Source of the DNA: Escherichia phage PPwrbA_EC3734
Sequence record: LC645450
Length of the DNA stretch: 62,966 nucleotides
Reading direction: 5' to 3' (one strand)
A program made the position numbers. Positions 48,001 to 51,000 of the stretch are shown piece by piece. Position 1 is the first letter of the stretch; every line of letters begins with the position of its first letter.

Positions 48001-51000
48001 ACCGGCGACTGAAAAGTCTTTTTTTAAAACATCAATCCCGTCAGGCAAAAGTTGTTTTTTCTTTATCAGAACAGAGAAGAAGGCCGATGTCATGTACACG
48101 CATGAACAGATTGATGGATATCATGCACTAAGGCTTCATGTAATTGTCAGGGGAACGAACCCTGGTGTTACGACGGTTTATGCTTTCGCGAATATGGTTA
48201 CTCCACCTTCTGAGTATGGTATCGCCATGTATAACCCGGACGGTGAGATGATTTATCATGGCGAAATGATGCTGCTTGACGCGAAGTTAATACCTGTTGA
48301 TATCAAATTTGAAAAGGACCTTGGATATCCATGCGCAATCATGCCTGCACTGGTCGGGTATTATAACTGGAAAAGAACTCCTTATGATCGACCGATTTAT
48401 ACCACATCCACTGGTGCTACAGGAAATAAAATATATTCCTGTGAGCATTATTCCGGTGGTGCAACATGGGATATTCGAAAGCCGTATATAGATAAGGTCC
48501 TGGTTATTAATACATCAGTATATGATTAGTTGAAGCGAGTCTTTAATATTCATTTAAAATGTCTAAAAAGATGTATTATTAAAAAGTTTAGCGTGTTATC
48601 TGAATACAGGATATCTTAAATGAAGAGTATAGCAACACTGGTTGTGTGTGCAATCTCCGGGATTGCCTGTGTAAATTTATCTGCACATGCAGCAGAAGGA
48701 GAGCATACAATTTCTCTGGGGTATGCGCACTTTCAGTTTCCGGGACTGAAGGATTTTGTAAAGGATGCGACTGCTCATAACAGGGAGACTTTCAGTCATT
48801 TCGTCAACAGAAACTACTTTTCTTCATTGGGCGAATATACAGATGGTCGGGTCAGTGGATATGAAGGCAAGGATAAAAATCCACAGGGCATTAATATCAG
48901 GTATCGCTACGAGATAACGGATGATTTTGGCGTTATCACCTCTTTTACATGGACGCGTTCTCTCACTAACTCACAGACATTTATTGATGTGCAGTCAGCC
49001 GATCATACCAGGAAGATTAAGAATCCGGCAGCTTCTGCCAGAACGGATATCAGGGCGAATTACTGGAGTCTGTTAGCGGGGCCTTCATGGCGGGTTAATC
49101 AGTACATGAGTTTATATGCGATGGCAGGGATGGGCGTTGCTAAAGTTAGCGCTGACCTGAAAATTAAGGACAATATTAACAGTAGTGGCGGATTTTCTGA
49201 AAGCAACAGCACGAAAAAAACCTCCCTTGCGTGGGCTGCAGGTGCACAGTTTAACCTGAATGAGAGTGTTACACTGGATGTGGCTTACGAAGGTTTCGGC
49301 TCTGGCGACTGGCGCACGAGTGGCGTTACTGCTGGCATTGGCCTGAAATTCTGACCTGTATCCGGTAACCGTTTACTACCCGCTGTGATGGCGGGTTTTT
49401 TATTGCCCGTACAGGGCAAAAACCGTAAATTATGCGTGGGTGCCTTTCGGCTGATGGCTGGAGGGTGAACCTGAAGGCCTGATGTGGAAAGGCCCCGAGT
49501 CAACTTAACGTTAACCCGAGGCCCTAACACTTCGTACCTTAAGCAAGTAGAAGGTTAGCGCCTCTCTGTAAAAGGAGTCAAGCGCTATGTCGCAAAAATC
49601 GCTTATCACCGTCACAATTTGCATGACGGTTATCTTCACCATCTGGATGTTGCACGGTTCACTGTGTGAGTTCCGGCTGAATTTGTGGGGAGCGGAGTTT
49701 GCGGCGTTCTTACAGTGTAAGCAGTAGGAAAACCGCGACGGGGACGAGAGTCCCCGTCAACTGGTTGCTGAGGTTCAGCCGATATGGCACCCGTTTCAGG
49801 TGAGAGAATGAACGATAAAATTCTCTGGTATATGCAGCGTGTTGTGAGAAATTCCCGCAACCCTGAATTTATGAATGAAGTTAAAGACGCCTGCCTTAAA
49901 AAGCAGGCGTTTTGTTTTGAGGCACCTGATGGCTTTTTGGTGCTGCGTTCTGTGCTCAGTGCTGATGGTATCCCTTATGTTCTGGTGTTGCTGGGCGTGT
50001 GTACGGGGAGTAACAGCGTTGAGCGTTACCTGCCGGAGGTGAAGACATTAACCCATCTGGCTGGCGGACGCTGGGCTGAGTTCCATACGGCAAGGCGGGG
50101 ATTTATCCGGCTGGGAAAACGACTGGGCTTTGAGCGAATGCCGGATGATGAGGATGGCTTCATGGTGTTCAGGATAGCGGTCTGACTGCTACAGTTTTCA
50201 TCATTGTGTTTAAACCAACATTGTAATTCACATTCTGACCCTGCTCCGGCAGGGTTTTTTGTTATCCAGGGGGCCATTATGGGTGGAAGTAAAGGCGGTG
50301 GTGATACCAAAGTAAAACCAACAGCAGCGCAAATAGCACAGGAAGAAGTGGCCTGGAAAGGGTGGCAGGATTACAAAAATATCCTCCGCCCGGCTGAAGA
50401 TAACTTCATGGAAAAGGTCGATGACCTGAACAGTGAGCAGCAGTACGACAATATTGCTGGCACCACAAATCTGGGGTATCAGAAACAGTTTGGCGAAGCA
50501 CGGAAGGAGCTTGCGGGTAATCTTGCTCAGTCCGGCGTTGACCCATCCAGTGGTCGTTTTAATGCGGTAATGAATGCGAACCAGAGTGACCAGGTAACCG
50601 GGCAGATTGACACAACCACACGGGGGCAGGTATCGCAGGCAGATAAGTATGTTGCCGGGCTACAGGATGTTGCTGCTCTCGGTTCTGGTCAGAAGGCGGA
50701 TGCGTTACAGAGTTTTAACTCTCTGGCAGACAGCAGTCTGGCAAAAGCTAAATCGGATGCACAGGCGGCGTTTACGAAACAGCAGGGGCGAGCCTCTCTT
50801 GTTGGCGCTGGTCTGGGTGCGGCAGGTGCATATGCGATGCATAAGGCTGGCGGTAGCGGAGGAAGTGGCGGTGCTAAAACACCTGGCACCGGCGCTAATG
50901 CCATTCAGCATCAGGCTCAGAACTGGAGACTGTAATTATGGAGTATGGCAAATACGAAACTCTCGCAAGGGCTGGTTATTCAGGAGCAGACCGCCCACAG

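Follow-up and report, generated by a model that had tools for sequence, protein, structure and literature searches.

The hok messenger RNA (mRNA) of plasmid R1 adopts three conformations, one metastable, one closed in the full-length molecule and one open in the truncated molecule, and translation of the mok frame at least up to the hok Shine–Dalgarno (SD) sequence is mandatory for Hok synthesis (PMC9841398). In Shiga toxin (Stx) phages, a hokW-mokW-sokW locus has been annotated in 933W at 58460-58734 (Plunkett 1999) and characterised in Sp5, where hokW helps lysis and phage release on induction (Takada et al. 2021, PMC8621323). Between 12 and 14 Hok genes were counted in O157:H7 genomes (Fozo et al. 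2010), and 1264 Hok peptides were recently sorted into 61 clusters in a preprint (Escalera-Maurer et al., 2025-26; bioRxiv 10.1101/2025.08.07.668861). We analysed 62,966 nucleotides (nt) of Escherichia phage PPwrbA_EC3734 (sequence record LC645450), the whole of which we call the window, and found downstream of lom a cassette, at 49418-49792, that is likely to be a hok/sok-type type I toxin–antitoxin moron of an Stx-converting phage.

The cassette resembles the R1 hok/sok system (parB; PMC9841398) in encoding a small Hok-family membrane toxin behind a leader of about 150 nt, in the predicted metastable 5' hairpin of its mRNA, in the tac/fbi closure of the full-length mRNA with a predicted tac/ucb refolding that exposes a loop after 3' trimming, and in a predicted convergent antisense RNA of about 65 nt with a single-stranded 5' tail and one terminator hairpin. 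It differs from R1 in its peptide, which is about 27% identical to R1 Hok and 46 rather than 52 amino acids (aa) long, and in lacking a mok frame that extends to the hok SD or into hok. Its predicted antisense duplex stops 24 nt before the hok SD and covers no identifiable functional start codon, and it lies in the late region of a phage, whereas the R1 system is carried on a plasmid.

A Hok-family toxin gene downstream of lom

The toxin gene occupies 49587-49727 on the plus strand, from an ATG at 49587 to a TAG at 49725-49727, and its 46 codons plus stop encode the peptide MSQKSLITVTICMTVIFTIWMLHGSLCEFRLNLWGAEFAAFLQCKQ. An SD sequence, AAGGAG at 49572-49577, lies 9 nt upstream of the ATG, and its GGAG is kept in most homologues. 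The original prediction, made from the sequence alone, had placed a Hok/Gef toxin open reading frame (ORF) of 46 codons at exactly these coordinates downstream of lom, with this ribosome-binding site and the motif SLCE-x-R ... E-x-AAF; the ORF, the site and the motif are all there, and the identity is borne out by profile matches, conservation and the surrounding RNA architecture. Pfam HOK_GEF (PF01848) matched the peptide with 33.2 bits, above its gathering score of 22 (E 4e-8), over profile positions 6-42 of 42, and PHROG 251 (phrog_251, "MokW-like host killing") matched with 85.8 bits. The peptide thus has the features of the Hok/Gef family: a length of about 50 aa, one N-terminal transmembrane helix and a profile score above the curated cut-off. 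PADLOC gave no match.

Among NCBIfam models the best match was HokA of E. coli K-12 (NF007290). The peptide shares with HokA an M-x-QK N terminus, WM before SLCE and an AAFL.CK C terminus, but it is 46 rather than 50 aa long, its 38.4 bits lie far below the equivalog cut-off of 89, and the preprint lists HokA in a separate 60% cluster (93; bioRxiv 10.1101/2025.08.07.668861). Among 5.8 billion proteins searched, 56 relatives were found, mostly of 46 aa; those with names came from Escherichia, Shigella and Salmonella, and every one was called a "Hok/Gef family protein". The C-terminal half, GSLCE.R...GAEFAAFLQCKQ, is conserved among these relatives. The median ratio of non-synonymous to synonymous substitution rates (dN/dS) of the ORF was 0.22 over 332 homologue pairs drawn from 28 distinct ORF sequences. 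These results show that the peptide is a Hok-family inner-membrane toxin under purifying selection.

A short ORF that carries no annotation in the original 933W and Sakai records could be suspected of being a chance frame in a structured intergenic region, for example in the lom 3' untranslated region (UTR). This is scarcely credible here, because the profile scores (above threshold for both HOK_GEF and PHROG 251), the conservation among homologues and the dN/dS value all speak for a coding sequence. The 46-codon frame is kept with mostly synonymous changes, it lies downstream of the lom terminator, and the cassette around it moves as a unit between unrelated contexts, which together refute the chance-ORF reading.

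The toxin gene itself has already been annotated, catalogued and assayed. In the original 933W record and the Sakai reference genome the interval from lom to L0129/ECs_1237 is an unannotated gap, and among the RefSeq matches listed the ORF is labelled "Hok/Gef family protein" by the NCBI annotation pipeline (PGAP). Table S2 of the preprint contains the identical 46-aa peptide as 72_1589, a member of a "high abundance cluster", which, as clone pAZ3-omega-72_1589 (LRP157), was assayed for toxicity in E. coli under arabinose induction (bioRxiv 10.1101/2025.08.07.668861). Forty-two of the 45 homologues assayed were toxic, and the text names the non-toxic ones as 19_179, 60_1482 and 69_1540 (same preprint); from this list of three we infer that 72_1589 is toxic to E. 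coli. In effect, the toxicity test that the original prediction had called for has therefore been reported as positive for the identical peptide. By their own account, the preprint's authors considered the coding sequence only and left Mok, Sok and the mRNA elements aside; the position in Stx phages and the co-occurrence with hokW are not discussed in the preprint's text. A ribosome-profiling study of small genes in Sakai (PMC5597208) contained, across its main text and 15 supplementary files, no trace of the peptide and no strings matching its coordinates, and literature searches by locus tag or peptide string gave nothing relevant.

Predicted elements of a hok-type mRNA

Upstream, the cassette is limited by the intrinsic terminator of lom (49378-49402, plus strand), which was called by a terminator scan and consists of a stem at 49378-49396 plus a T-run. 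Given this terminator, a hok-type mRNA would need a promoter of its own. A putative one lies at 49403-49431 on the plus strand, with a -35 TTGCCC at 49403-49408, a 17-nt spacer and a -10 TAAATT at 49426-49431, 6 nt before the proposed +1 G at 49438. In all diverged homologues the pattern TA...T recurs at a fixed distance from GGGTGCC (TAGATT, TACAGT, TACATT, TAGAAT and TAGAGT), and the hokW -10, TAGAAT, stands equally far from its +1. The -35 is a weak inference from the sequence and falls outside the conserved block. Both this promoter and that of the antisense gene described below were proposed from homology, not from a consensus scan.

The full-length mRNA would run from 49438 to about 49795, some 355 nt on the plus strand, with its 5' end placed by homology to an Rfam model and to hokW and its 3' end approximately, just after the fbi-like element. 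The Rfam model is RF01794, whose positions 1-157 align to 49438-49600 on the plus strand (E 7e-6, 35.6 bits). Although it is named "sok antitoxin", RF01794 matches the sense strand, and its consensus corresponds to the hok mRNA from its 5' end to the hok AUG. What it models is therefore the hok leader and not the antisense RNA, and a strand call that relied on it would mislead.

At its 5' end the mRNA carries a tac-like element (49438-49454), made of GGGUGCC at 49438-49444 and UCGGCUGA at 49447-49454. An fbi-like element at 49775-49792, made of UCAGCCGA at 49775-49782 and GGCACCC at 49786-49792, lies at the other end, where homology to all other copies stops. The two form perfect complements of 7 nt (49438-49444 with 49786-49792) and 8 nt (49447-49454 with 49775-49782) across 320-341 nt, and the pairing forms in the minimum free energy (MFE) structure. 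RNAalifold applied to the whole mRNA returned no tac/fbi helix and chose a local 5' hairpin instead, so we counted the pairing explicitly: over 31 homologues 87.5% of the cells were paired, versus at most 44% when the partner was slid.

In silico, the full-length RNA (49438-49800 or -49795) folded at -155.4 kcal/mol (z = -6.7) with its 5' and 3' ends closed upon each other. In this fold the loop at 49539-49547 pairs with 49765-49771, part of a dcb-like segment (49765-49774) that pairs with the region of the antisense-target loop; the MFE partners of 49536-49545 are 49766-49774. The start-codon region, 49587-49603, pairs with a segment of the coding region at 49691-49707 (inverted repeat I1), the AUG itself with 49705-49707. 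In RNAalifold this AUG-sequestering helix (columns 183-199 with 290-306) is nearly invariant, with a few compensated changes.

The nascent and shortened RNAs folded differently. The first 43 nt are predicted to form a hairpin at -18.4 kcal/mol in which tac pairs with 49456-49472; the RNAalifold consensus is this nascent hairpin, with G-C/G-U alternation. When the mRNA was cut in silico at 49762, its 5' end re-paired with a ucb-like box at 49484-49496 (inverted repeat I2), a pairing for which 85.7% of cells were paired in invariant columns. The antisense-target hairpin, predicted with the help of the Rfam alignment at 49518-49565 (GAGGC...GCCUC), presents the loop CUUAAGCAA at 49539-49547, whose probability of being unpaired was 0.70 in the shortened mRNA versus 0.24 in the full-length one. 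Its motif CAAGT is invariant in an alignment of 12 loci and nearly so over 31. The tac/ucb pairing, the exposed target hairpin and the nascent 5' hairpin all agree with the Rfam consensus structure, and in these models the nascent, full-length and 3'-shortened folds reproduce the three hok conformations.

A further stem-loop lies in the 3' UTR at 49737-49758, with a perfect 9-bp stem formed by GACGGGGAC at 49737-49745 and GTCCCCGTC at 49750-49758. Across homologues it shows compensatory changes (AU:16 versus GC:15 at one pair; AU:15, CG:10 and GC:3 at another), a strong covariation. The hairpin that the original prediction had noticed after the stop codon is therefore real, but it does not serve as the mRNA terminator: no T-run follows it on the plus strand, where the conserved sequence runs on to fbi, and the terminator scan scored it on the minus strand only. 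By analogy with R1 hok (PMC9841398), it is likely to be a stop for 3'-to-5' trimming that would define the active shortened mRNA.

One copy in IMG/VR (L033:1049-1411) has its first 45 nt or so, including tac, replaced by unrelated sequence, with the remainder intact. As a natural 5'-truncated variant without tac, it should fail to form the tac/fbi pairing.

A predicted Sok-like antisense gene in the leader

The original prediction had suggested searching the minus strand upstream of the toxin ORF for a Sok-like gene, and this turned up a candidate promoter and terminator hairpin at 49483-49581. The -35 TTGACT (49581-49576) and the -10 TAACCT (49557-49552) are separated by an 18-nt spacer. The predicted RNA of about 62-66 nt would start near 49548-49544 and end near 49483, and would consist of a single-stranded 5' tail (CUUGCUUAAGGUA...), a 16-bp hairpin and UUU; it folded at -31.3 kcal/mol (z = -5.4). 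Judged by sequence features, the element has the leader location, promoter, single-stranded 5' tail and terminator hairpin of a sok gene.

AGGTTAG, the complement of the -10 region, shows no variation in the alignment of 12 loci and hardly any over 31. The tail motif CACUUGC, which is complementary to the target loop, is the best-conserved part of the RNA, and the hairpin is kept in two sequence variants among homologues. The -10 is identical to that of sokW, in which the "pro-less" mutation changes TAGGTTAG to CCGGCTCG (primer YO-421 compared with the 933W sequence) and abolished antitoxin activity (Takada et al. 2021, PMC8621323). No transcript data for the cassette locus were found in the literature searched.

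A self-contained cassette in unrelated contexts

Diverged copies, at 78-88% identity, match the window over 49418-49792 only. In alignments of 12 and of 31 loci, homology begins about 20 nt before GGGTGCC and stops just after GGCACCC. In Stx phages the cassette follows lom, which in the window is the gene at 48620-49354 encoding an Ail/Lom protein; elsewhere it occurs in islands, in a lambda-like prophage, where it separates gpJ from the tail-fibre gene, and in a P2-like prophage, downstream of ogr. Because the same unit of about 375 bp is found in such unrelated contexts, it behaves as a self-contained moron, inserted in this Stx-converting phage between lom and the next late gene.

Over the 451 bases that surround the ORF, the window is 100% identical to 933W, VT2-Sakai (Sp5), Stx2 phage I/II and many PA-series Stx2a phages. 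In the Sakai genome (NC_002695.2) the cassette region corresponds to 1,292,450-1,292,830, an offset of 1,243,032 from the window coordinates. The 451 bases match 197 phage records, 86 of them at 99% identity or more, and a megablast match was present in 1675 of 5426 complete E. coli genomes.

A scan of genome contigs gave seven loci, three of which (L003, L004 and L006) are probably contaminants. These contigs are labelled Xanthomonas pisi, Planococcaceae metagenome-assembled genome and Vagococcus sp. and carry the Hok cassette at 76-100% protein identity; assembly contamination is the most likely reason for an enterobacterial cassette on them.

A second Hok locus beside hokW-sokW

The original prediction had mentioned a hok-family locus in Stx2-type prophages and left open whether it was this one. 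Such a locus exists, namely hokW-sokW, but it is a different one in sequence, strand and position. Were the two the same, a function in lysis and phage release would already have been demonstrated for the cassette, and they do share a phage family, a protein family and the antisense -10 hexamer. The chance of identity is nevertheless practically nil. HokW, of 51 aa (MKQQKAM...DYESEK), is about 29% identical to the 46-aa peptide; in 933W, hokW lies on the opposite strand, 13 kb from the lom-proximal locus; the published hokW primers have no match in the window with up to 2 mismatches; and the preprint places HokW in cluster 35 with HokD and the 46-aa peptide in cluster 72 (bioRxiv 10.1101/2025.08.07.668861). 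Coordinates and sequences rule out identity with hokW, and 933W and Sp5 (VT2-Sakai) carry two Hok loci of different clusters.

The two loci share an mRNA plan, with a GGGUGC 5' end, a AAAGCCCC box and a AGGUUAGC box, as well as the antisense -10 and the placement of the mRNA promoter -10 described above. They differ in that HokW is HokD/Gef-like and the cassette peptide HokA-like, in that hokW has an in-frame 70-codon mokW with no counterpart at the cassette, and in the sokW hairpin, which is about 20 nt longer than that of the Sok-like RNA. Only for hokW have phage release and the dependence on RNase III and Hfq been studied experimentally.

The window is collinear with 933W only up to 61403. 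At the position of hokW it contains a decayed hokW-like remnant (61438-61590, minus strand) with a 38-codon ORF at 61438-61554 on the minus strand, MKAAKGDVNHPAHLCITVIVTALITKKDLCKGGIPRHL, which phmmer matched to HokW (E 1.5e-6, 24.6 bits); Rfam gave no sok-like signal in this region. The phage of the window has lost an intact hokW-sokW and kept the lom-proximal Hok locus, which makes it a natural single-locus background.

Leader frames and the absence of mok

At the position of mok the cassette has two short leader ORFs on the plus strand, within 49482-49558, both opened by a conserved ATGTGG at 49482, and neither overlaps hok. The frame of ATG 49482 closes after 8 codons at TAA 49506-49508. 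That of GTG 49484 runs for 24 codons to TAG 49556-49558, 14 nt before the SD and 29 nt before the hok ATG. Upstream of hok, its own frame is interrupted by TAA 49569 and TAG 49548, and neither of the two remaining frames of the window allele has a start codon that leads into hok. Here, then, the overlapping mok frame expected by the original prediction is missing: with all frames checked, none overlaps hok, and no leader frame carries the Sok target and would be translated up to the hok SD.

The homologues tell the same story. Examination by eye and by script found no consistent mok frame in any of the three frames, over 12 and then 55 unique homologous cassettes. Among the 55, small indels in the loop of the Sok hairpin shift the frame, so that the end of the leader ORF varies between -81 and +134 relative to the hok ATG. 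A frame of 60-61 codons (79 in one case) overlaps hok in about 14 of the 55, close to the chance expectation of 0.195 for 34 open leader codons. These sequence comparisons lead us to conclude that the subfamily has not conserved a mok frame and that the window allele lacks one.

An allele of this kind might be a silent relic, with toxin ORF and RNA elements intact but translationally dead and passively carried after its mok-type frame was broken by a 1-nt difference in the Sok hairpin loop that brings in the TAA after 8 codons. Pedersen and Gerdes are said to have described, in 1999, inactivated chromosomal hok loci of E. coli K-12, which would be a parallel for such passive carriage. Stx-phage variants such as L010, about 92-94% identical, do have an ATG frame of 61 codons that spans -103 to +80 and so runs into hok, whereas the frame of the window allele is the 8-codon one, and R1 needs translation of mok up to the hok SD. 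Yet long leader frames are about as common in the subfamily as chance would have them, with no sign of selection. Escherichia, Salmonella and Citrobacter alike retain the hok ORF, with its low dN/dS, a GGAG-type SD at constant spacing, the Sok promoter, tac and fbi, and the strong AAGGAG SD, 9 nt upstream of the ATG, would be well suited to initiating translation independently. With constraint visible on all the remaining elements of the cassette in three genera, we regard a silent relic as unlikely.

Other features of the window

The gene after the cassette, at 49784-50185 on the plus strand, is a homologue of 933W L0129 and ECs_1237. Its start is probably ATG 49808 rather than 49784, because PHROG 610 matches only from residue 9 and the first 8 codons overlap the fbi of the mobile cassette. 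In the tail-gene region upstream of lom, about 2.7 kb of the window (41959-44640) are absent at the corresponding place of 933W, with flanks that are 99% identical to 933W. Rfam matches above the gathering score elsewhere in the window were sRNA-Xcc1 (4846-4934, minus strand), C4 antisense RNA by isrK (13827-14014, minus strand) and, at 23622-24180 on the plus strand, three transfer RNAs followed by STnc100, all of which are typical of Stx-converting lambdoid phages.

Discussion

Taken as a likely hok/sok-type moron, the cassette would work as follows. A promoter just past the lom terminator would give rise to a stable mRNA of about 355 nt, which would be silenced while nascent by the metastable 5' hairpin and, once finished, by tac/fbi pairing that conceals both the start codon and the antisense-target loop. 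As the 3' end was slowly trimmed to the stem-loop at 49737-49758, fbi would be lost, whereupon the 5' end would re-pair with 49484-49496 and the target hairpin with its loop at 49539-49547 would form. A short-lived Sok-like RNA of about 65 nt, transcribed from the minus strand (-10 TAACCT, 49557-49552), would bind this loop through its conserved 5' tail, and the resulting duplex of about 60 bp over 49483-49548 would lead to destruction of the mRNA, probably by RNase III. If the supply of antisense stopped, because the element was lost or the prophage was induced (the latter shown for hokW), translation of the processed mRNA would follow and Hok would damage the membrane. By analogy, the role of the locus could be prophage stabilisation, abortion of superinfection, or help with lysis on induction like that of hokW.

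This reading rests on sequence, folding and homology to R1 hok and hokW, from which transcript ends, 3' processing, antisense expression, RNase III cleavage and the trigger are deduced, and several points weigh against it. The boundaries of both RNAs, at the 5' and 3' ends alike, were inferred and none was observed. A consensus promoter scan of 49300-49900 called no promoter, those of both strands falling below threshold. The RF01794 score is lower than the gathering score of 59, and nothing in the cassette reaches a gathering threshold. The tac/fbi and tac/ucb columns are nearly invariant, so that covariation neither supports nor refutes these helices. The evidence for toxicity comes from a preprint in which the toxin was expressed with an artificial SD from an arabinose promoter, and from its list of non-toxic clones. 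No phenotype of the locus in a phage has been reported. Finally, since Hok synthesis in R1 depends on translating mok as far as the hok SD, this allele, which lacks such a frame, may never make the toxin from its native mRNA.

The missing mok leaves three options: the strong SD of hok may itself initiate on the opened mRNA, the short leader ORF may substitute for mok, or the allele may be silent. Since there is no mok frame and the antisense duplex ends 24 nt before the SD, repression probably acts through cleavage and refolding, or through the 24-codon leader ORF, rather than through classical mok–hok coupling. Going further, it is possible, though we lean against it, that Hok cluster 72 is a mok-independent variant of hok/sok that is spreading as a self-contained 375-bp moron and, in 933W and Sp5, provides a second, independently tuned killer beside hokW. 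The antisense would then act through RNase III cleavage plus refolding without a leader-ORF block, or alternatively through a short leader ORF of variable frame that merely ends near the SD, and the moron would enter several insertion points of lambdoid, Stx and P2-like prophages.

The gene family, the mechanism and the exact peptide are already on record, and the finding alone adds no new biology. The description of the locus, with its Sok-like gene, tac/fbi pairing, missing mok and status as a second Hok locus in 933W and Sp5, is a modest addition; it was not found stated in the literature searched, a search that left T1TAdb outside. In the Stx-phage literature there is one hok locus, hokW, whereas 933W and Sp5 carry two. 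Phage release changed roughly twofold when hokW-sokW was deleted (Takada et al. 2021, PMC8621323), an effect that, with both loci present there, was measured beside a second intact Hok cassette. If the cassette is indeed a mok-independent second killer, phenotypes of hokW-sokW deletions would underestimate the contribution of Hok to lysis timing or prophage retention. Whether Sok control depends on leader-ORF coupling in every hok system could also be tested conveniently in this subfamily, which has no conserved mok.

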